Shown here in pieces: positions 1,649 through 42,611 of a stretch of 64,000 nucleotides of DNA. A program made the position numbers and the translations under genes. The notes beneath the pieces are model-generated. The model searched no databases. It saw only the letters and a program-made list of their open reading frames with translations, and was not told where the DNA came from. The stretch comes from Calothrix sp. NIES-2098 (lineage in GTDB: Bacteria > Cyanobacteriota > Cyanobacteriia > Cyanobacteriales > Nostocaceae): positions 157,599 to 221,598 of the forward strand of contig AP018172.1 of NCBI GenBank assembly GCA_002368175.1, in the 5' to 3' direction. Within the stretch, counting starts at the first letter, position 1; each line of letters opens with the position of its first letter.

Positions 1649-2907
1649 ATATCAGGACTTACGCAACTGGCACAATGCGATCGTTAGTTCATAGTACATA
1701 GGTATTAATTAAATCTGATTTTGAAAGCTTTGCCTTCGTAATAGAAGTCGCTGTCTTGGAAGTACTATCGAAATATTCGTGAGAAAATAGGTAGAGGTTA
1801 TATTAGATAAATTTCGCTAAGGGTAATGAGATTTACTAAGCTTAATTACTGCCAATATTTATTAAGTAGTCAAATTAATTATACAATTACCAATTTGGCA
1901 GAGCATTTAGAGAGTATTAGTCATGACGCAATTAACTATTATTTGAAAACCGAAAAATTAACACCTCGTTTACTATGGGATAACGTGAAAGAGGTCGTTG
2001 AGTCTGATGAAAATGGTTACATCATATTTGATGATAGCGTTTTAGATAAAAAGTATTCTGAAGAAATAGAAATAGTCAGAAGACAATATAGTGGTAATGA
2101 GCATGGTGTCCTGAAAGGCATTGGTGTAGTTAGCTGCGTGTATGTCAACCCTACACTTCAAAGATTTTGGGTCATAGATTATCGAATTTTTAATCCTGAT
2201 GTCGATGGGAAAACCAAGATAGACCATGTGAAAGATATGCTCCAAAACCTTGTGTATCATAAGCTTTTACCATTTGATACTGTTTTGATGGATACATGGT
2301 ATGCGGTACACAGTTTAATGCTATATATTGATAGCTTAGACAAAATTTATTATTGCCCTTTAAAAAATAATCGTTTAGTTGATGATACATTTGGTCAAGA
2401 AAAATATAAACGGATTGAATTATTAGAATGGAACCAAGAAGAATTAGACTGTGGTAAAATCATAAAAATTAAAGGATTCCCAGCTAATAAAAAAGTGAAA
2501 CTATTCCGGGTTACTGTTTCTACCAACAGAACGGATTATGTCGCCACTAACGATTTATCTCAAAGTTCCACGGATGTTGTACAACAGGTGTGTAAAATTC
2601 GTTGGAAAATAGAGGAGTTTCACAGGGAAATTAAACAACTAACTGGCATTGAATCTTGCCAGTGTCGGAAAGCTAGACTCCAAAGAAATCATATTGCTTG
2701 TGCAATGTTGGTTTGGGTTAGGTTAAAGAATTTAGCCTATAGAACTGGCAAAACTATCTATCAAATCAAGCATAACTTGCTTTCTAATTATTTAATTCAG
2801 CAACTGAAGCGCCCAAGTATTTTTATGTGCTTGGTTTGATTTATATTGTCGCGTGTCAGGGCTTTGCCCTGCCTGCTATTTGTGCCAATTGCGTAAGTCC
2901 TAATATC
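1649..2907 (+). mobile_element. IS element (IS4/IS701-like, DDE) with ~27-bp terminal inverted repeats
   Basis: Left end atatcaGGACTTACGCAACTGGCACA (1649-1675). Right end TGTGCCAATTGCGTAAGTCCtaatatca (2881-2907) is its reverse complement with 2 mismatches. The element encloses the transposase ORF. Confidence 0.7.
1826..2839 (+). CDS. DDE transposase (IS4/IS701 family-like)
   Basis: 337-aa ORF with a transposase-like C-terminal motif (…IRWKIEEFHREIKQLTGIESCQCRKARLQRNHIACAMLVWV…). It is flanked by inverted repeats. Confidence 0.7.
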   Translation: MRFTKLNYCQYLLSSQINYTITNLAEHLESISHDAINYYLKTEKLTPRLLWDNVKEVVESDENGYIIFDDSVLDKKYSEEIEIVRRQYSGNEHGVLKGIGVVSCVYVNPTLQRFWVIDYRIFNPDVDGKTKIDHVKDMLQNLVYHKLLPFDTVLMDTWYAVHSLMLYIDSLDKIYYCPLKNNRLVDDTFGQEKYKRIELLEWNQEELDCGKIIKIKGFPANKKVKLFRVTVSTNRTDYVATNDLSQSSTDVVQQVCKIRWKIEEFHREIKQLTGIESCQCRKARLQRNHIACAMLVWVRLKNLAYRTGKTIYQIKHNLLSNYLIQQLKRPSIFMCLV

Positions 2908-2959
2908 AATGAAGTTTCATTTTCCACCATAAGTAAGCGATCGCTATCTACCTAATGGC

Positions 2960-4115
2960 AGTTTCTCATACCAATTAACTAAAAGTATGATACAAATAAT
3001 TAAGGAATAAATATGAACAATAAAAATGGCTGGAGTAACTAAAGTTGAAATAAAAGAGTCAGTCGAAGAGTTACATGAACTGCTGTTAAAACAAAAAACC
3101 GCATCAAGCCGTGAAAGAATACAAGCTTTGTATTTGCTGAAAATGGGACAAGTAAAAACAATACAGGATGTAGGTGTTGTTCTGGGCAGAGGAAGAGTAA
3201 CAGTACAGCGATGGTTAAAGGCTTATACACAATCAGGAATTACAGGTCTGTTAGTAATAAAAAAAAGTACAGGACGACCGCCAATTATTAAGTCAGAAGC
3301 AAAAGAGCAACTTTTAAAAGAACTAGAACAACCAGAAGGATTTAAAAGTTATGAAGAAATCCGAACATGGCTAAAAGCAGTGGAGGGAATAGAAGCATCA
3401 TATAAAGTAGTACATGATACAGTACGTTATCGAATGAAAGCCAAATTAAAAGTGCCAAGAGCAGTAGGGATAAAACATCACGAAGAAGCAGAATCAGAAT
3501 TTAAAAAAAACTGCCACAATACCTAGAAGTCATTAAAAAACACGTTATAGAGCCAAAGGATAAACACAAAAGAATTAGATACTGGTGTGGTGATGAAAGC
3601 CGTGTAGGATTAAAAACAGAATTAGGAAGACTGATTACGCTTTGTGGCATTAAACCTATCGGCATCATGCAATGGAGAAGAGAAAATTTCTATTTATACG
3701 GTTTAGTAGAACCATTAACTGGGGAGTATTATATTTGGGAATTTTCTCATCTCAACACAGCTTGTTTCAATATCTTTCTAGAACAATTTGCGGCTACATA
3801 TCCAGACGATATACATATTCTTCAATTAGATAATGGTGCTTTTCATTTAAGCCAGACACTTCAAATTCCCGAAAATATTATTTTCTTATTTCAACCTCCA
3901 CATACTCCCCAGGTCAATCCCATTGAAAGGTTATGGGAAGAAGTTAAAAGAAATTTAAGTTGGGAATGCTTTGCCAATTTAGACGAGTTAAGAACAGCTA
4001 TCTGGCAACGCCTTGAGCAATTAAACAACTTCATTGTTGCTTCTATTACAGGTTGGGGTTTTATTCTGGATGCTTTATTTGTATCAGGCTTTTCGTGAAT
4101 TGGTATCAGTGCTAA
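2960..4115 (+). mobile_element. IS630/Tc1-mariner family insertion sequence
   Basis: Imperfect terminal inverted repeats ctcataccaattaac (2965-2979) and gtgaattggtatcag (4095-4109, reverse complement ctgataccaattcac). Two-part transposase with a frameshift. Size is ~1.15 kb. Confidence 0.65.
3026..4098 (+). CDS. IS630-family transposase, OrfA (HTH) and OrfB (DDE) joined by a programmed -1 frameshift at the A8 run 3503-3510
   Basis: OrfA (3026..3526) has an HTH N-terminus. Frame 1 opens immediately after TAA 3502-3504 and reads through KKLPQYLEVIKKH… into the DDE domain (…LQLDNGAFH…FQPPHTPQVNPIERLWEEVK…). The slippery A AAA AAA sequence is typical of IS630. Confidence 0.7.
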
Positions 4116-4342
4116 TATTATTAATTTTTACTGTAAAAATGTTGAGTAATTTATATGATGCTTATATACATCAGTGATATTAATCTTACTAGGATTTAGG
4201 ATAGATTAATTATGATGTAAATGCTTGCAAATCCCAGAACCGATTGTAGCTATAACTAACAGTAAATTTCCAGTTACGGAGGTAGATCCTAACTCTTAAA
4301 TCTAGGCGTAAAGCCTGTTTTAATTTTGAATTATGCTGTCAA

Positions 4343-5077
4343 TTAAACTTCTATAATTTGAATTTCATCAAGCTGGTTGATCGCCACATCCGCACCTTTG
4401 ACATGATCTGATTGACCAATCCAAGTAATACCGATGCAACCTGCGGCGTTAGCGTTGCGTGCCATTTGCATATCACCAACAGAATCACCTACCATCAATG
4501 TAGCGCTTGGTTCTACTCCTAAAGCTTGGCAAGCTTGTAAAAATAGGATGGGATCGGGTTTGCTCGGCCCTTCATCTACTCCCATTTCTAACTGGATGTA
4601 ATCACTTAACTGGTGATGAGCGACAAAGCTTTGTACTTCTTGAGTTGTCGCTGCTGAGAGGATACCAAGTTTTAACCCTGCTTCTGAAAGAGATTTCAAT
4701 ACTTCCAAGCTACCGACAAACAATGGCGAAGGAGTTTGACCAATGTATTTTTCGGCTTCATCCAAAGCTTGACGGGCAATTTTTAAAGACTCAAACCACC
4801 CTCTACCAGTTTCAGCAATATATGCAGCAGCAGCAACTTCTGTTTCGCGGCGACTGGCGACTGAGATTAAACCTGCGGGATCGAGGCTATTGCCATTCAC
4901 ACCAAATGCCATTAGTAGAGGTTCACCAATACCAGGAATTTGAGCATCTATTAATCTTGCTGCTCTTTGGGCGAGCGATCGCAAATACACTTCTGAGTCT
5001 TCTAAAGTACCGTTTTTATCAAACAAAATCGCTTGAATATGAGGAAATGTCATATTTTTACATTTAATCGTTACCAA
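4343..5077 (-). CDS. HAD-superfamily hydrolase (phosphatase-like)
   Basis: HAD motif I ILFDKNGTL near the N-terminus and motif IV MVGDSVGDMQMARNA. The true start may be the internal Met at ~5053. Confidence 0.7.
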   Translation of the reverse strand: MVTIKCKNMTFPHIQAILFDKNGTLEDSEVYLRSLAQRAARLIDAQIPGIGEPLLMAFGVNGNSLDPAGLISVASRRETEVAAAAYIAETGRGWFESLKIARQALDEAEKYIGQTPSPLFVGSLEVLKSLSEAGLKLGILSAATTQEVQSFVAHHQLSDYIQLEMGVDEGPSKPDPILFLQACQALGVEPSATLMVGDSVGDMQMARNANAAGCIGITWIGQSDHVKGADVAINQLDEIQIIEV

Positions 5078-6902: not shown

Positions 6903-8432
6903 TTAGAGAGCTTCCTTACGGCGGGTTGTCTTGTCACCCACTTTCTGGAATAGACCCCATTCGACTTGCTCTTCTAGATCCGCTTCTACACCAGCAAATA
7001 CATCACGGTAGATTGTACGCGCGCCATGCCAGAGATGACCAAAGAAGAATAAGAGAGCAAATACAGCGTGTCCAAAGGTGAACCAACCTCTGGGGCTAGT
7101 GCGGAATACACCATCAGAGTTCAAGGTTTCCCGGTCAAATTCAAAGATTTCACCGCCTTGAGCTTTACGGGCGTATTTCTTCACTTCAGCTGGATCTGTA
7201 AAGGTCTGACCGTTCAGATCGCCACCGTAGAAGCTTACAGTTACACCAGATTGTTCAAAGCTATATTTGGATTCTGCCCGACGGAAAGGAATATCAGCGC
7301 GAACGATACCATCTTTGTCGGTCAAGATAACTGGGAAGGTTTCAAAGAAGTTGGGCAGACGACGTACAGTTAATTCTCTGCCTTCAGCATCTTTGAATAC
7401 TGCGTGACCTTGCCAAGATTGGGCAATACCATCACCCTTGACCATTGGCCCTGTACGGAATAAACCGCCTTTGGCAGGGCTGTTACCAACGTAATCGTAG
7501 AAAGCAAGTTTTTCAGGAATTTGTGACCAAGCTTCCGAAAGGCTTGCACCATTGGCAACGCTGTTTTGGACGCGACGATTAATTTCTTGACGGAAGTAGC
7601 CTTGATCCCATTGGTAACGGGTAGGGCCAAACAGTTCAATTGGGGTAGCAGCGTTACCGTACCACATAGTTCCAGCAACCACGAAGGCAGCAAAGAATAC
7701 CGCAGCAATACTGCTAGAAAGTACAGTTTCAATGTTACCCATCCGCAAAGCTTTGTAGAGCCTTTCGGGTGGTCTGACTGTGAGGTGGAATAAGCCTGCA
7801 ATAATGCCGACGATACCAGCAGCTATGTGGTGAGCAACAATGCCACCAGGATTAAAGGGGTTAAAGCCATCGGGCCCCCATTCGGGCGCTACTGGTTGGA
7901 CGCTACCTGTAACTCCAAAGGCATCAGAAACCCACATTCCCGGGCCATATAGTCCAGTTAGGTGAAAAGCACCGAAGCCAAAACAGAGTAGACCAGATAA
8001 GAACAAGTGAATGCCAAACATCTTTGGCAAGTCTAGAGCAGGTTCGCCAGTGCGAGGATCTCTAAAGAGTTCCAAATCCCAGTAAACCCAGTGCCAAACG
8101 GCAGCTAAGAACAAAAGACCAGAAAGAACAATGTGAGCCGCCGCAACACCTTCAAATGACCAGAAACCGGGATCGGTTGCCGGGCCACCAGTAACGCTCC
8201 AACCACCCCAAGATTGAGTGACGCCCAAACGTGCCATGAAGGGTAACACGAACATCCCTTGACGCCACATGGGGTTAAGAACCGGATCGCTGGGGTCATA
8301 AATAGCTAGTTCGTACAATGCCATCGAACCAGCCCAGCCTGCCACTAGAGCTGTGTGCATCAAGTGTACAGAAATCAGTCGTCCTGGATCGTTCAGAACG
8401 ACTGTGTGTACTCGGTACCAGGGTAGTCCCAT
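6903..8432 (-). CDS. psbB: Photosystem II CP47 chlorophyll apoprotein
   Basis: 509 aa beginning [43 protein letters not shown]…, a highly conserved PsbB sequence. Confidence 0.95.
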
Positions 8433-8952
8433 CGACTACGCTCCTCCTCGATGAGTTAGTTTACAAAGCAATTTTCTTACGGAAGTTATGCGCGGCAGAA
8501 GTTACCGCTGGGACTTCTCTTTTGTTTTTTGTTATTGCCAGGGTCTTTTTTACCACAGCTTGGTCTTGTTAAGTCAGACAGCGTGGGTATTCTGGCTATG
8601 CTTAGACGCTGTAACGGTCTGTACCCGATTGGGTTGCGATCGCTCTCAATATTGAACTACCTCATATTTCTCTAGAAGTGATTAAACCTCTTAGAGGCAT
8701 TTTGGTAGTTAAACGTGCTAGGCAATAGCAAGCGCAAAAATGAGAATATTTTAAAAAGTGTAACTATTGATGGAATTGTTTGCAAGCGTGTAAATAGATG
8801 CGATCGCGTAGCATCTATGATGTTTTTCGCTACCAATCCCTGTCTTACATCTAGTTTACGTGTTCTTATGGAACTAAAGGAGATGAAGCAGGTGAGGAGC
8901 ATAAGGCAGATTCTTCCTCTGCACTCCTGCTCCTCCTACTTCCTCTGCTTTC

Positions 8953-36137: not shown

Positions 36138-36285
36138 ACAGTGTTTAATTAGATGAGGCTAGACAAACTAAACCTGCTTATATAGATTTCAATGACTCTG
36201 CAAAAGCGGAATTTCATAGGGGTTTAGCAATGCTAAACCCTTACACAAATATTTGTATAATTATGAAATGAAATAGTATCACATC

Positions 36286-36717
36286 CTAATTTTTTGCCGT
36301 TGCTTCCTTGGCATTCCCGTTGCCATTTACACTATCAACAAGTGACGTTAGCTCTGAGCTAGAATTTGGTAATTCACCTCGTCGTAATGCACGGCGGCGC
36401 TGGTTTTTAGGTACTCCTCCTGCCATACCATACTCTACACTGCGTTTGCCATATAGTGTTGCAACTCCCAACAGCATAAGTTCTGTCATATCTCCCAATT
36501 CTTGCTCAGTTTCTAGCAATTCACGGTATAACTTATCCAAATTAGAAAGGGCACTGTTATAAGCATTCTCTTGAGTTTGCATTGTCTTGATAAGAGTTAA
36601 AAAGCCAGGTAAAGTCAGTCCATTACCTACATCTAAATTTGGATCGATAGAGTTCATGCTAGCTGCACGACGCACTGCTCTTTCTAATACTTTAGAGGTT
36701 CTTTTTTGACGAGACAT
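36286..36717 (-). CDS. Hypothetical protein (143 aa), basic N- and C-termini
   Basis: ORF only. No family recognised. It is transcribed away from the repeat-rich intergenic region. Confidence 0.35.
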   Translation of the reverse strand: MSRQKRTSKVLERAVRRAASMNSIDPNLDVGNGLTLPGFLTLIKTMQTQENAYNSALSNLDKLYRELLETEQELGDMTELMLLGVATLYGKRSVEYGMAGGVPKNQRRRALRRGELPNSSSELTSLVDSVNGNGNAKEATAKN

Positions 36718-36839
36718 AATCTACCCTTCTCATAGAGTACGGTTAACATTCTTTACATTAAGAAACTTCCGTATGGATCAACCTGAGAGAATTTCGGCAA
36801 ATCTGCGATGGCTTTTGCTACACAGATATTTTTCATTTG

Positions 36840-37170
36840 AGTAAGTGAATTACTGATAGGAGTTAGCAAACAAGTAAATTAACAATGTAATTTGTCGTTT
36901 GCTTGCGGAAAACACCAAAATGAGTAGATGATTTACTGTAATGAGTAAGTAATAAAAACTTTTGAGTAAGTAATATGCCATTTTACTTGCGGCAAATACT
37001 AAAAGGAGTGCGCGATTTACTCCAACGAGTAAGAAATAAGATATTTTAAGTAGGCAATATAGCTTTTTACTTGCGGAAAACACAGCAAGGAGAAGGTCAT
37101 AATGTATTTGAAGAACTCATTGAAGTATTTTGAGTAAGTAAAATGCCTTTTTGCTTACTCAAATCAACTT
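36840..37170. repeat. Degenerate tandem array (3-4 units of ~85-90 bp), each unit carrying a GAGTAAGTAA…TTACTTGCGG hairpin
   Basis: ttacttgcgg(a/c)aaa(c/t)ac recurs at ~36898, ~36986 and ~37066. gagtaagtaa-N9-ttacttgc hairpins sit at 36963-36991 and 37044-37074, with a near-perfect one at 37132-37160. Units are ~75% identical. Confidence 0.6.
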
Positions 37171-37397
37171 TATGTATTGTTTTGATGTAGTTATTAGTTA
37201 TGGCGATCGCCAAATATAAAGTTTCAACTAAGTGCGATCGCTCTCTGCCTTCAAAGTTATTGCAAGCGTCCTAAAATTAAGCTTTCAGTTCTACTCTTAA
37301 GCATTGTCACGGATATCAAATTGTTTTTTGCCTAGATATAACATTGATAGATTATTGGATTTGACAACAATCTGAATCACTATGTCTTAATAGATTA

Positions 37398-38816
37398 ATG
37401 ATTTTATTAGCTATGCCACATGAAGAGTCATTGCTGACTAACCAGGATAATTTGCCTATCAATACTATCGCGTCCTATGTTTGTCAAGCTATTATTTCTA
37501 TTCAAGAGCAGCAGCCAGAATTATTAAACGAAAAATTCAAGCATATTCAGTGGCGTAGCAATACTATTGAACCTAAATTAGCAGAAATATTGAGCCAAAC
37601 ACCAGACTATAATGCATTAATACAAAAGTTGAATATCCACCTAAAAAATTGGTTAATTCCTGAAGCTTTTAAATCCCAAATATTAATAGATTTATTACAT
37701 AAAGTTAATCAACTTAATCCTCAAAAAAATTATTTAGATAATACAGCTAATTTTAAATATGTAGAATCATCTGAAACTTTTATGTCTGCTGATAATGTTG
37801 TTGCTTTACAGCAGACAGGAATAGCCATTTTACTTTTGGATGCAGAAAACTTAATAATAAACCATGAATCTGAACAGTTTTTAACTCAAGTTTGTCACTT
37901 TCCTCTACAAGTCAAGATTGCATTTGCTAATTGGCGCAGTATAAGTAAAAAAATCGATGTTGAATTACATAATCGTGGCTACGATCTGATTCATGTTCCT
38001 GCTGGCCGAGACCATGCTGATGGTAAAATGATAGCTTTTGGCTCATCTATCCATGAACGTTACCCAAACGCCAAAGAAGTTTTCGTCTGTTCATCAGATA
38101 CGGTTATGACTAACCTATGCAATCATATTCAGCAGAATGGATTGCTCGTGTATCGGGTTAGCAAGCAGGGAGAAACTGTAACAGTATTTAATTCTTCGAC
38201 TGGAAAGACTATAATTAACATCCCTGTTTTGCCAGCCAAAATTTCATCAATTGAAAAATTTATTCTAGAATTAAAGATTTTAATAAAAAAAGAGCAAATA
38301 AATAGCCAAAATTTTTGGATTAAACTTTCTAGGCTCTCAGAAATATTTAAAAATGAATATAAAATAACTATTAGCCAAGTTGTTTCTAAATATTTGCCAG
38401 GTAAAAAGGCTAGAGATATTTTTATTAACTATCCTGCTGATTTTGTTATTCATCAAATCGATCCAACTTCTGAATTATATGTAACGCTATTGGAAGTTAA
38501 TCAATCACAACCAATAGATAACAATAATCAGGCTCACGGTAGTAGCATTCCAGAGTCTTCATTGCTAAATATTAATACAAAAGCAGATCTGGAACAAGCA
38601 CTTCAAAATCTTATCAAAAGCTTAAATCAAAAATCATCTGACAGCTATGTTAATGCTGGAATTTTAGCTAGCGAATTCAATAAAAAATATAGTAAACCAA
38701 TTACTCAACAGATGAAAAGTTTGCAAATAACTGGTACTTATATCAAATTTTTGCAGTCCAGTAGTTGTTTTACACTTAGGCAAACAGACAAAGGGTGGGA
38801 AGTAAAGAACTCTTAA
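37398..38816 (+). CDS. NYN-domain (LabA-like RNase) protein with two C-terminal OST-HTH/LOTUS-like domains
   Basis: NYN core …IAILLLDAENL…VKIAFANW…DGKMIAFGSSIHERYPNAKEVFVCSSDTVMTNL…. Two ~70-aa LOTUS-like segments follow (…FWIKLSRLSEIFKNEYKITISQ… and …NAGILASEFNKKYSKPITQQMKSLQITGTYIKFLQSS…). The gene is markedly AT-rich relative to its neighbours. Confidence 0.55.
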   Translation: MILLAMPHEESLLTNQDNLPINTIASYVCQAIISIQEQQPELLNEKFKHIQWRSNTIEPKLAEILSQTPDYNALIQKLNIHLKNWLIPEAFKSQILIDLLHKVNQLNPQKNYLDNTANFKYVESSETFMSADNVVALQQTGIAILLLDAENLIINHESEQFLTQVCHFPLQVKIAFANWRSISKKIDVELHNRGYDLIHVPAGRDHADGKMIAFGSSIHERYPNAKEVFVCSSDTVMTNLCNHIQQNGLLVYRVSKQGETVTVFNSSTGKTIINIPVLPAKISSIEKFILELKILIKKEQINSQNFWIKLSRLSEIFKNEYKITISQVVSKYLPGKKARDIFINYPADFVIHQIDPTSELYVTLLEVNQSQPIDNNNQAHGSSIPESSLLNINTKADLEQALQNLIKSLNQKSSDSYVNAGILASEFNKKYSKPITQQMKSLQITGTYIKFLQSSSCFTLRQTDKGWEVKNS

Positions 38817-38988
38817 CTTCAAATATAGTATAGATAATTTCAGTTATAACTATTGTGTAAAAATAATCTGAATTAAGCTATATTTTTTCCTTCAGATGTT
38901 CTCTGAGATAATTCGAGTAATTTATCAAAAATTGATTAATACTGCCAACATCTCCCCATGCCTGAAGTTTTGCAGATTTATAAATTGC

Positions 38989-39462
38989 CTATGCTAAATC
39001 AGATGCTAGGTCGCTTCTCGAACAGTGTTCACTGACATCTATGCAAGCATTGAGAAGATAACTAACAATTTCATTTGCTAAATGTATTGGATTGAAAGGA
39101 GCAAATTCTACTATTTCATCATTGCAATCCAATTCATCGAAAACATCTTGGCAATCTTCAGATGTTGCTTCTCCATTTAGCCATTGACTTATTTTGTTAA
39201 TTCCCCATCTAAATGGCATATCACCCCAAGCATATAACTCTTCTTCTATAGCAAGCTCAACACATTGAAATGTCATACTTATTAGTAATATTGGCTTGAC
39301 TTTTAAACTGGTCATCATCCAGATTAACCAATCTCCTCTTGGACATTCTTGTAAAGCATTTAGCACATTATCTTGATAAAGCTTTGCCCAAATAAGAGCC
39401 TCTCTTCTATCTGGCCCATCTTTAGGTAAATTGAATAATACTTTCACAGTTGTTTTTATCAT
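38989..39462 (-). CDS. Hypothetical Trp/Cys-rich protein (157 aa)
   Basis: ORF in the AT-rich island, convergent with the NYN gene. No family recognised. Confidence 0.35.
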   Translation of the reverse strand: MIKTTVKVLFNLPKDGPDRREALIWAKLYQDNVLNALQECPRGDWLIWMMTSLKVKPILLISMTFQCVELAIEEELYAWGDMPFRWGINKISQWLNGEATSEDCQDVFDELDCNDEIVEFAPFNPIHLANEIVSYLLNACIDVSEHCSRSDLASDLA

Positions 39463-39737
39463 TGATTTTTCTCCATATTTATCTTGTGAATATTTTTAAT
39501 GAAAAGTTTCTTTATATAGCCAAGCACTACTCTGAAATACAAGGTTAGTGGAACGTAGATATGGAAAAGCTGGATTGCCGTATTAATTCGGTGAAAACGT
39601 AGATTGCAGTGTAAAGATACACCTACATTTTAATTACCAACTTTTTACAAAAATTTATACTAAATTGATTAACTACCTTCTTATACGTAACAATATGTGA
39701 GATAATTTTAATAAAAGTTAATGTTTGCTTTCCGCCG

Positions 39738-40451
39738 ATGCTAAGACTATTTACTGACTTCGACGGCCCGATTGTTGATGTTTCCGAACGCTACTACCGC
39801 GTCTATCAATTCTGCCTAGAGGAAACCCGACGCCCAAATCAATCAGTACGAGAACTTTCTAAAGCAGAATTTTGGCAACTCAAGCGATCGCGCGTTCCTG
39901 AAAAACAAATTGCTCTAAATTCTGGACTAGACGAAGCGCAGGCAATAGAATTTTCACAATTGCGGCGGCAAACAGTACATACAGAACAGTACTTTCAATA
40001 CGACACCCTTGTCCCTGGTGCTGTAGACGCACTGTTAAAAGTTCAGCAGGCTGGAATCGATTTAGCAGTCATGACAATGCGCCGTGTTTGGGAACTAGAC
40101 TATGCTTTTCAAAAATTTCAACTAGATAGATTTTTCCCAGAGAATCGCTGTTATTGTCTCAGTAACGACTATGTAAAAACCCGCGATATTGATGATAAGC
40201 CTTTATTAATGGCACGTGCTTTAAAAGAACTACCTGCGGTTGCTGATAGCTGGATGGTGGGGGATACAGAAGCCGATATCACTGCTGGTAAAAAACACGG
40301 GATCAAAGCGATCGCTGTAGAGTCTGGTATTCGCGATCGCGCTCAATTAGAACTTTACCAACCCGACTTAATTGTTAGGGATTTAAGCACTGCGGTAGAT
40401 CTTATCCTAGAAGCTAAACTTATTGAGCCGCAACCTCTATACATTGGGTAG
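39738..40451 (+). CDS. HAD-superfamily hydrolase
   Basis: Motif I FTDFDGPIVD. Motif IV MVGDTEADITAGKKHG. Confidence 0.65.
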   Translation: MLRLFTDFDGPIVDVSERYYRVYQFCLEETRRPNQSVRELSKAEFWQLKRSRVPEKQIALNSGLDEAQAIEFSQLRRQTVHTEQYFQYDTLVPGAVDALLKVQQAGIDLAVMTMRRVWELDYAFQKFQLDRFFPENRCYCLSNDYVKTRDIDDKPLLMARALKELPAVADSWMVGDTEADITAGKKHGIKAIAVESGIRDRAQLELYQPDLIVRDLSTAVDLILEAKLIEPQPLYIG

Positions 40452-41873: not shown

Positions 41874-42611
41874 TTGTGCAAAGTGATGGTCATGGCTCCT
41901 GCCAAGATTCTTGTAGTTGATGACGACCCTGCGGTTCGGAATTTAATCCAACGCTTTTTAATTAAGCAGAGCTATCAGGTAGAAGCTGCTGAGGATGGTA
42001 AGACAGCCTTAGCACTATTTGAGCAATTTAATCCAGATTTGGTGATTTTAGATGTAAATTTACCAGATGTCATTGGGTTTAACCTCTGCCAAGAGATGCA
42101 AGGCCGTAATGGCGTTTTTGTTCTTATGCTGACTAGCCGTGCCGACGAAGCTGACAAGATTCGCGGCTTTTCTAAAGGTGCTGATGACTATCTCACCAAA
42201 CCTTTTGGGTTGGGAGAACTAGAAGTCAGAGTAGCAGCTATTTTAAGGCGTCAGCGAGTTGTGACAACCGCAGAACAGAAACGCCTGGTGTTTGAAAAAT
42301 TGATGATCGATCCAGTCCGCCGGGAAGTGGCGCTTAACAACCAGCCAGTACCCTTAACCGCACTGGAATTTGACTTGTTACATTTTTTAGCTAGCCATCC
42401 TGGTCGAGTGTGGCGACGCGCAGAACTTATTCAAGAGGTCTGGGACTACGAATATGTAGGCGATCAGCGGGTTGTAGATGTACATATCGGCCAAATCCGC
42501 AAAAAGATAGAAATTGATGCTAGCCAGCCAGCATTAATTCAAACAGTACGTGGTGTAGGTTATAAGTTTGAATGCCCAACTCACTCGCCGCAGTTGGAAG
42601 TTAATTCCTAA
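41874..42611 (+). CDS. OmpR-family response regulator
   Basis: REC (…ILVVDDDPAVRNL…LVILDVNLPDVIGF…) plus a winged-helix Trans_reg_C domain (…LTALEFDLLHFLASHPGRVW…VRGVGYKF). Confidence 0.85.
   Translation: MCKVMVMAPAKILVVDDDPAVRNLIQRFLIKQSYQVEAAEDGKTALALFEQFNPDLVILDVNLPDVIGFNLCQEMQGRNGVFVLMLTSRADEADKIRGFSKGADDYLTKPFGLGELEVRVAAILRRQRVVTTAEQKRLVFEKLMIDPVRREVALNNQPVPLTALEFDLLHFLASHPGRVWRRAELIQEVWDYEYVGDQRVVDVHIGQIRKKIEIDASQPALIQTVRGVGYKFECPTHSPQLEVNS

Follow-up and report, generated by a model that had tools for sequence, protein, structure and literature searches.

In bacteria, OST-HTH proteins nearly always carry an N-terminal DUF88/NYN domain together with one or two OST-HTH domains and have been predicted to act as standalone RNA-degrading enzymes (PMC2848206, PMC5499597), a stereotyped architecture that was described in 2010 (PMC2848206). 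For MARF1 (Limkain b1), the cleavage of single-stranded RNA was shown to require both the NYN aspartates and the LOTUS domains (PMC6217404). The toxin partners described for the immunity protein Imm5 are DYW deaminases and CdiA-CT toxins (PMC3482391). The 64,000-nt window analyzed here, that is, the whole stretch of Calothrix sp. NIES-2098 DNA under study, contains a locus that touches on these systems and that a preliminary description had taken for a horizontally acquired AT-rich island encoding a MARF1-like RNase and a small orphan protein as its possible partner. We find that the region consists of two unrelated things, namely an ordinary, uncharacterised gene of a predicted RNase and an unrelated pseudogene. 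The former is probably a native and vertically inherited NYN-2xLOTUS gene, the latter a decaying Imm5-like gene within an unrelated, strain-specific insertion.

Base composition and conservation of the NYN gene

Both open reading frames on which the preliminary description was built exist, one of 472 aa on the forward strand (37398..38816, +) and, convergent with it, one of 157 aa on the reverse strand (38989..39462, −). The sharp drop in GC content is likewise real, with values of 0.29–0.35 across approximately 36800–39800 as compared to 0.40–0.47 in the flanks. The 2065-bp AT-rich stretch itself has a GC content of 0.32 versus 0.40, ranks among the lowest 1.6 % of equal-sized windows and deviates in composition from the host genome, which is one criterion for an island. 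The horizontal acquisition that had been read from these values did not hold up, however, because the NYN gene falls below its flanks in GC content in all 75 related loci (0.332 vs 0.398). Low GC is a property of this gene and not the mark of a recent transfer. It extends to all three codon positions, FYMINK residues make up 35 % of the product, and an amino acid composition rich in Asn, Lys, Ile, Phe, and Tyr combined with a low GC3 would account for it as a long-standing feature.

The gene product shows 100 % identity to P0001, which is the 'NYN domain-containing protein' of Calothrix sp. NIES-2098. The 472 aa are those of the longest ORF, with its start at 37398; the true start codon is most likely the ATG at 37413, which is M6 of this long ORF, as supported by the conserved AGCTATGCC context and by the length of the NCBI protein; the gene would then span 37413..38816 (+) and encode 467 aa. 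It has 936 homologues, and a phmmer search gave 258 clusters at 50 % identity. Homologues occur across Nostocales at 50–84 % identity, and relatives of the gene were found in 313 species genomes, mostly of Nostocales, among them a few filamentous genera without heterocysts (Coleofasciculus, Caldora). The order NYN gene, HAD hydrolase gene, CPP1-like gene, and response regulator gene is common to loci L001, L002, and L004. Among the 58 loci with enough flanking sequence, the HAD gene lies downstream of the NYN gene in 32, in 28 of which the CPP1-like gene is present, too; synteny is incomplete in that the other 26 have no HAD gene within 5 kb. The upstream flank is not conserved among relatives.

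A candidate promoter or operator motif of approximately 50 nt was found 5′ of the gene (37293..37345, +; TTAAGCATTGTCACGGATATCAAATTGTTTTTTGCCTAGATATAACAT). It contains GATATCA...GATATAA repeats. Its nucleotide identity amounts to 80–87 % across at least 25 loci of Nostocales, the proteins of which are only about 45–55 % identical; it occurs once per locus and always about 55–100 nt 5′ of the start codon, and travels with the NYN gene among relatives. Within the 64-kb window the motif is unique (chance expectation of 0 matches), and it is matched by no Rfam family. We infer that it may be the promoter or operator of the NYN gene, which would thus be expressed from a deeply conserved control element of its own. 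The adjoining repeat array of the preliminary description is present as well (84 nt x 3 at 36898–37149, just 5′ of the NYN gene); as a regulatory part of this gene it was set aside because it is missing from related loci. An Rfam scan of 36200–40000 detected no known RNA family, and a promoter/terminator scan returned sites no more numerous than in shuffled sequence, with no terminator between the convergent NYN gene and small ORF.

Domain architecture and the predicted NYN active site

From its N- to its C-terminus, the protein comprises a helical domain, a NYN domain (aa 140–275), and two LOTUS domains (aa 283–366 and 393–472), and it fits the bacterial LK-nuclease plus OST-HTH architecture. 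The earlier assignment of a NYN nuclease fused to two LOTUS domains is borne out, by a Pfam match for the former and by fold for the latter, though without a Pfam OST-HTH match. The NYN–LOTUS order behind the label MARF1-like is the common one in bacteria (PMC2848206, PMC5499597) and neither a speciality of MARF1 nor a hallmark of defence.

The NYN domain (LK-nuclease, PIN-like; 37815..38222, +) matches PF01936 at aa 145–266 with the small margin of 25.8 bits over a cut-off of 24.2, and all 20 aligned relatives match this family (best E 2.1e-8). Its fold is PIN-like alpha/beta and closest to solved NYN domains. Profile searches against PDB sequences, run with the full-length family and with the NYN domain only, gave no meaningful match to any solved NYN structure. 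The domain is divergent in sequence, and its relation to solved structures came out by fold comparison only.

LOTUS domains 1 (38244..38495, +) and 2 (38574..38813, +) both fold as a winged helix-turn-helix that closes with a beta-hairpin and are closest to solved LOTUS domains, which were the best fold matches of the C-terminal model (pLDDT 88). The two are mutually homologous (hhalign 97.7 %, E 1.5e-12). The NYN protein itself stays below the threshold of Pfam OST-HTH (PF12872), isolated LOTUS slices reach only 12–15 bits (cut-off 23.8), and six of the 20 relatives match at E ≤ 0.1 (best 3.4e-5).

As catalytic reference, we used the four acidic MARF1 residues D178, D215, D246, and D272 together with the Asn of the DxxN and the Ser of the SxD motif, and residues were assigned by motif and predicted secondary structure. 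On this basis, D148 and N151 are located where beta-1 ends, D208 where a helix starts, and S232 and D234 where beta-4 ends, all five being invariant or nearly so in the family; the DxxN and SxD motifs and the helix-start Asp agree with the catalytic map of MARF1 (PMC6217404). Retention of the catalytic residues, which had been suggested as a check, is thus found for these positions but not at the end of beta-2, where this assignment places an invariant N178 at the site of the essential D215 of MARF1.

This exchange is a point at which the predicted activity may be questioned. With the beta-2 Asp exchanged for Asn in a divergent domain, the protein might be catalytically impaired and serve instead as an RNA-binding or scaffolding regulator, either like the clock-output regulators of the LabA type, which are not known to be active nucleases, or as a LOTUS-type recruiter of DEAD-box helicases. 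The LabA family is known genetically only (PMC5499597), Rbp3 and ribosomes co-purify with LabA/NYN proteins of Synechocystis, one of which has an OST-HTH domain (PMC12232666), and LOTUS domains of the Oskar type bind the Vasa helicase and not RNA, according to work cited in PMC6217404. However, D148, E150, N151, D208, S232, and D234 are retained down to 27–37 % identity, which argues for selection on the active site, and the fourth carboxylate could come from D187, which is invariant and lies shortly after beta-2. The modelled LOTUS domains furthermore stop at the beta-hairpin and lack the C-terminal helix of the extended, helicase-binding type. Altogether, we regard loss of catalysis as rather unlikely. 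In the most likely mechanism, which follows from analogy to the families, the LOTUS pair would bind RNA that is structured or G-rich and hand it to the NYN site (D148, N151, D208, S232, D234) for Mg2+/Mn2+-dependent cleavage; the protein would then be an enzyme of the LabA/LK-nuclease type that processes or turns over RNA on its own.

The N-terminal helical domain (37449..37712, +; aa 18–105 of the long ORF) is particular to this family. In the AF2 model it forms helices at 19–38, 57–66, 71–85, and 88–104 (pLDDT about 80–89); it has no Pfam match, and relatives of full length retain it as far down as about 27 % identity. A more specific role can be imagined, in which the NYN-2xLOTUS protein is a regulatory RNase specific to the lineage of filamentous, mostly heterocyst-forming cyanobacteria and thus an undescribed module of post-transcriptional control, not a generic housekeeping nuclease. 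We consider this improbable. The basis named for it is the unique N-terminal domain and the ~50-nt upstream element, the conservation of which exceeds that of the coding sequence. If it were true, this element could be an operator for a conserved regulator or for the NYN protein itself.

The interrupted Imm5-like gene in the NYN–HAD spacer

The small gene covers 38878..39462 (−), of which 38989..39462 form the 157-aa ORF, a Trp- and Cys-rich product as had been noted (six residues of each). An in-frame TAG at 38989–38991 (−), within the sequence GAT TTA GCA TAG GCA ATT, stands where homologues have a conserved Trp; the last 36 codons reach 38881, and the natural stop lies at 38878–38880. When 196-aa homologues were used in tblastn, the alignment crossed the TAG and continued down to 38884–38896. 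Rather than a complete gene, the 157-aa ORF represents a nonsense-truncated copy of a cyanobacterial family of about 196 aa, the truncation presumably being due to a TGG-to-TAG mutation. A sequencing error is a less likely origin of the TAG, because the identical 157-aa protein was found on two contigs of a Logan read assembly, which is an additional public source.

The family has nine close members. The view that it belongs to no recognisable family is correct as far as direct Pfam matches are concerned, of which there are none (including PF21805) for the small ORF, P0122, P0123, P0274, P0276, and P0277. It gives way at the level of profiles: a search with the small-ORF family recovers proteins that match PF21805 at 26.7–44.8 bits, and hhalign relates the family to PF21805-matching proteins over 100 columns (99.1 %, E 1.6e-18). 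Judging from these comparisons, the family is distantly related to Imm5-like putative immunity proteins. The suggested immunity-like character is thereby upheld for the family, but not for this broken and solitary copy as a partner of the NYN protein.

Whether the shortened product might nevertheless be functional deserves consideration. The Imm5-like homologous region (about aa 8–110) lies wholly upstream of the premature stop, and the family member P0278 is also short (142 aa). Moreover, the mutation is recent, since the 36 codons past the stop are still intact and conserved, and the truncated protein could still be made and active. On the other hand, the C-terminal ~40 residues with their conserved motifs (W-x-IY-x-AAKLQ) are present in eight of the nine members, and there is no toxin gene nearby in the window. 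A functional 157-aa immunity-like protein thus seems unlikely, and the gene most likely represents an orphan immunity gene in decay, without functional link to the NYN protein.

The location of the small-ORF family differs in every genome examined. The Imm5-like gene is solitary in all five contexts examined, with no neighbouring toxin gene in the window and none recognisable in the four others. In Chlorogloeopsis, the homologue lies a few genes from a pAgo–PDDEXK pair, a proximity that was judged incidental because the other contexts differ.

In Calothrix sp. NIES-2098, the gene is situated in a strain-specific spacer or insertion that extends from the NYN stop codon to the conserved region 5′ of the HAD gene (38817..39660, no strand assigned). 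Nostoc RF31YmG and Nostoc 106C, which are the closest relatives, have a spacer of about 135 bp at this place, without any small ORF; only 39661–39737 of the NYN–HAD spacer region align with these strains. No target-site duplication or flanking repeats were seen at the junctions, and no integrase or transposase is among the ORFs of 34–43 kb. The NYN–HAD slot is variable among genomes, and an insertion of ~0.8 kb into it would have brought in the solitary Imm5-like gene. Patchy presence, another criterion for an island, was found only for this insertion and not for the NYN gene.

These data bear directly on the original proposal that the locus is a horizontally acquired AT-rich island, where the effector, in defence or as a toxin, is the NYN–LOTUS RNase, and its immunity or antitoxin partner is the product of the convergent small ORF. 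The low GC relative to the window, the Imm5-like kinship of the small-ORF family, the variability of the NYN–HAD slot, and the pAgo–PDDEXK neighbours in Chlorogloeopsis would all be compatible with it. Nevertheless, it is highly improbable: in relatives, the NYN gene shows conservation, synteny, and an equal AT-richness, the closest of them have it without the small ORF, and the supposed partner carries a premature stop. The two genes do not co-occur, as none of 80 NYN loci contains a small-ORF homologue and none of the four other small-ORF contexts a NYN gene. NYN proteins are furthermore not among the Imm5 partners described so far (PMC3482391). The architecture is not specifically tied to defence; PADLOC-DB, searched to E ≤ 1, matched neither the NYN protein nor the small-ORF homologues, and PHROGs gave weak matches only (E ≥ 0.05) for the NYN protein and the small ORF. 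Three observations had been named beforehand as speaking against the proposal, and two of them were made, that is, no co-location elsewhere and conservation of the NYN gene with the same AT-rich composition in every relative; the third, absence of the catalytic residues, was not, these residues being mostly present.

Relation to known systems

For the discovery of new systems, the locus matters little, and the main result is a correction. An apparent foreign defence island proved to be an old resident gene that is AT-rich in every relative checked, which calls for caution with composition-based island calls in cyanobacteria. In addition, an unannotated family of small cyanobacterial genes is now linked, by profile comparison, to Imm5-like immunity proteins, and a well-conserved cyanobacterial NYN–LOTUS family with a conserved upstream element would, provided that an orthologue is identified in a model Nostocales strain, offer a tractable case in the bacterial NYN–LOTUS class, for which we know of no member with demonstrated activity. 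Our literature search found no study of this cyanobacterial NYN-2xLOTUS family, and NCBIfam gave nothing useful for the NYN protein or the small ORF. NYN genes reported in Nostoc punctiforme (Npun_R1332, adjoining RNase III) and Mastigocladus could not be equated with the family.

As compared to the bacterial LK-nuclease plus OST-HTH proteins (PMC2848206), the NYN protein has an extra N-terminal helical domain of ~110 aa, and within the wider LK-nuclease plus OST-HTH/NYN.COG1432 'LabA-like' group (PMC5499597) it is very divergent, as seen from the 258 phmmer clusters and the barely detected PF01936. MARF1 (PMC6217404) differs more strongly: the protein described here lacks an RRM (no RRM match), has two LOTUS domains instead of eight, and shares 13–14 % identity with MARF1 in structural alignments. 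It is bacterial and not an orthologue, and MARF1 is thought to derive from the bacterial architecture, not the reverse. LabA/LalA of Synechococcus elongatus and Slr1870/Slr0650 of Synechocystis (PMC12232666) are likewise cyanobacterial NYN proteins, Slr1870 having a C-terminal OST-HTH domain, and their genes are chromosomal and regulatory or housekeeping, not defensive. Compared with these by description only, the present family is largely limited to filamentous cyanobacteria and has an N-terminal domain of its own. Among the Imm5/Imm5_like putative immunity proteins (PF14423, PF21805; PMC3482391), those that match PF21805 share with the small-ORF family the motifs CPRGDWL(I/L)W and W-x-GEAT and a size of ~190–210 aa; the family differs from these PF21805-matching proteins in its C-terminal half, where the latter have an Ala-rich repeat, and the Calothrix copy differs from Imm5 systems in being nonsense-truncated and without an adjacent toxin gene.

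Composition and inheritance of the NYN gene

The preliminary description of this region named two open reading frames, a large one at 37398..38816 (+; 472 aa) and a small one at 38989..39462 (-; 157 aa), within a stretch of reduced GC content. Both ORFs are present and the drop in GC is real: the 2065-bp interval has a GC content of 0.32 as compared to a window mean of 0.40 (lowest 1.6 % among equal-sized windows), with values of 0.29-0.35 over ~36800-39800 and of 0.40-0.47 on both flanks. As a tandem array furthermore adjoins upstream, the observation as such stands, although its gene boundaries needed correction. The GC deficit of the NYN gene affects codon positions 1, 2, and 3 alike, and F/Y/M/I/N/K residues account for 35 % of its protein.

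From this composition, horizontal acquisition had been considered likely. Low GC is, however, an old property of the NYN gene and no trace of recent transfer, since the gene lies below its flanks in 75/75 related loci (means of 0.332 vs. 0.398). Full-length homologues with 50-84 % identity are spread across the Nostocales; of the species genomes scanned, 313 encode a relative, almost all of them Nostocales, alongside a few other filamentous cyanobacteria (e.g., Coleofasciculus and Caldora). A library of 1.84 billion proteins yields 258 clusters at 50 % identity. The downstream order of the window, that is, a HAD hydrolase, an opposite-strand CPP1-like gene, and an OmpR-type response regulator, recurs in Nostoc sp. 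RF31YmG, Calothrix brevissima NIES-22, and Cylindrospermum stagnale PCC 7417. Among the 58 loci with enough downstream sequence, the HAD gene follows within 0.15-2.6 kb in 32, and 28 of these also carry the CPP1-like gene. Given this distribution, the shared gene order, and the consistent AT-richness, acquisition from outside is unsupported. The response regulator (41874-42611, +) is itself exceptionally conserved and forms a stable block together with the CPP1-like and HAD genes; its protein is 94-100 % identical across Nostocales loci whose NYN proteins share only ~50 %.

The upstream region

A DNA element of ~50 nt (37293-37345) precedes the NYN gene and retains 80-87 % nucleotide identity in at least 25 Nostocales loci, where the proteins share only about half of their residues. 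Each locus has a single copy, always 55-100 nt ahead of the start codon; the element has the consensus TTAGGCAGTTTCACGGaTaTCAgATnGTTTnnTnCCyAGATATAACAT and contains a spaced direct repeat (GATATCA...GATATAA) as well as a -10-like TAACAT. No Rfam family matches it, and it probably serves as promoter and operator. Alignment of this region across loci indicates that the true NYN start is the ATG at 37413, in agreement with the 467-aa NCBI protein. Two HIP1 octamers (GCGATCGC), a motif typical of cyanobacterial chromosomes, are located in the 5' spacer (37205-37212 and 37235-37242) and are consistent with native cyanobacterial chromosomal DNA.

Further upstream, between the NYN gene and a divergent 143-aa ORF (36286-36717, -), lies an array of three tandem 84-nt units (36898-37149) that are 67-74 % identical, presumably the repeat array of the preliminary description. 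An imperfect hairpin, TTTGAGTAAGTAAnATGCC...TTTTnCTTnC, is present at every unit boundary. Being absent from the upstream regions of related NYN loci, the array is strain-specific. The 143-aa ORF, which matches no Pfam or NCBIfam family, stands in place of the pst-type ABC transporter genes that precede the NYN gene in three relatives, according to their gene tables (L001-L003). Since none of the window's upstream genes was found in any of 80 NYN loci, the upstream flank has been rearranged in NIES-2098.

A truncated Imm5-like gene beside the NYN gene

An initial search with the small ORF returned only two homologues, each of 196 aa. When these were used in tblastn, the alignment ran through the stop codon of the small ORF (...GAT TTA GCA TAG GCA ATT TAT...; D-L-A-W-A-I-Y in the homologues, with Trp at TAG) and continued in frame for 36 further codons, ending at 38881. 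By this alignment, the small ORF is a nonsense-truncated (TGG to TAG) copy of a ~194-aa gene. A Logan read assembly, as a further public source, contains the identical truncated 157-aa product.

With a profile search, the family grew to nine close members; a source organism is named for three of them, all cyanobacterial. The search also retrieved distant proteins that match PF21805 of Pfam ("Imm-5 like putative immunity protein"). Profile-profile comparison of the family with the PF21805-matching proteins gave 99.1 % probability (E 1.6e-18, 100 columns), and both groups have the motifs CPRGDWL(I/L)W and W-x-GEAT in common. Judged from these profiles, this unannotated small cyanobacterial gene family belongs to the Imm5-like superfamily, a new, if modest, assignment. 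For Imm5 proteins, links with DYW-deaminase and CdiA-CT toxins have been described (PMC3482391).

The small ORF had also been proposed as an immunity or antitoxin-like partner of the NYN protein, for which we find no support: none of the 80 NYN loci contains a homologue, and the family members occupy a different site in each genome (pAgo-region genes, aldehyde dehydrogenase, 6PGD, epimerase), with none of the contexts examined adjoining an NYN gene or a recognisable toxin. As the NYN-HAD spacer measures ~135 bp in the closest relatives and only the ~77 nt preceding HAD align with the window, the small ORF, according to this comparison, sits in a strain-specific insertion of ~0.8 kb. The same slot holds other cargo elsewhere, namely a second NYN paralogue in NIES-22 (429 aa, placed in tandem immediately after the orthologue, 7513-8802 of locus L002) and SDR and glyoxalase genes in PCC 7417. 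In Chlorogloeopsis sp. ULAP01 (locus L006), a PD-(D/E)XK gene and, after it, a gene with a Piwi domain (prokaryotic Argonaute) (1811-4836) lie ~3 kb from the full-length small-ORF homologue, with several large ORFs of no known family (696 and 290 aa) between and beside them; these surroundings may be a defence neighbourhood.

The NYN-LOTUS protein and its relation to MARF1

The large protein is 100 % identical to a "NYN domain-containing protein" of Calothrix sp. NIES-2098. Pfam barely detects its NYN domain (PF01936, aa 145-266; 25.8 bits vs. a cut-off of 24.2), and neither OST-HTH in Pfam nor any NCBIfam model matches. Two AlphaFold2 models, one of the protein built with 20 relatives (pLDDT 74) and one of the C-terminal 194 residues with 57 relatives (pLDDT 88), predict four modules (residues numbered in the 472-aa ORF): an N-terminal helical domain (aa 18-105), an alpha/beta domain (aa 140-275), and two winged-helix domains (aa 283-366 and 393-472). 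Lower-ranked matches of the fold comparison include MARF1 LOTUS (7.6), NE0665, a bacterial OST-HTH protein (7.6), and Oskar LOTUS (7.5). In Foldseek, the top match of the C-terminal model is the TDRD7 tandem LOTUS structure. Since the two C-terminal domains are moreover mutually homologous (hhalign 97.7 %, E 1.5e-12) and OST-HTH is found at E <= 0.1 in 6/20 relatives, the models bear out the proposed NYN plus two LOTUS domains by fold instead of curated sequence match. A third LOTUS domain is present in some orthologues from Anabaena and Sphaerospermopsis (550-565 aa). The N-terminal domain, a peculiarity of the cyanobacterial NYN-2xLOTUS family, represents a modest novelty together with the strongly conserved upstream element.

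Mouse MARF1 requires four aspartates, D178 and D215 at the ends of beta-1 and beta-2, D246 where alpha-3 starts, and D272 at the end of beta-4, with N181 and S270 likewise conserved (PMC6217404). The family retains LLLD148-A-E-N151, A-D208-G-K-M where a helix begins, and C-S232-S-D234 where a strand ends, all of them invariant or almost invariant even at 27-37 % identity. The second strand ends in an invariant Asn (KIAFAN178W), Asp not being present there; D187, nine residues past N178, is also invariant. Thus, three carboxylates out of four, as well as the Asn and Ser, appear to be in place, the fourth position having no clear match. The catalytic residues are hence not missing from the NYN core, and full catalytic competence is a possibility. 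The main rival explanation, a catalytically weakened NYN domain in an RNA-binding regulator, draws on N178, whereas the retained residues speak for a nuclease.

While architecture, motifs, conservation, and synteny come from the present analysis, for the mechanism of a nuclease we infer from the families that the LOTUS pair would bind RNA and pass it to the NYN site, which would cleave it in a metal-dependent manner; cleavage would require the NYN aspartates together with the LOTUS domains, as in MARF1 (PMC6217404). In the models, neither LOTUS domain has the C-terminal helix found in the helicase-binding "extended" type. Cyanobacterial LabA-type NYN proteins play a role in clock output, and two Synechocystis LabA/NYN proteins (one with OST-HTH) co-purify with Rbp3 and ribosomes (PMC12232666). 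The suggested defence role is unsupported; no defence-system model matches.

Anantharaman et al. predicted bacterial NYN plus OST-HTH proteins to be standalone RNA-degrading enzymes without conserved partners (PMC2848206), and Matelska et al. described the architecture as common in bacteria and archaea, with functional studies lacking (PMC5499597). In outline, the window protein would work similarly to MARF1. The label "MARF1-like architecture" fits as far as NYN and LOTUS domains are concerned but does not extend to the MARF1 family, as the protein lacks RRM domains, has no more than two LOTUS domains, and shows 13-14 % identity; it belongs to the known bacterial LK-nuclease plus OST-HTH class.
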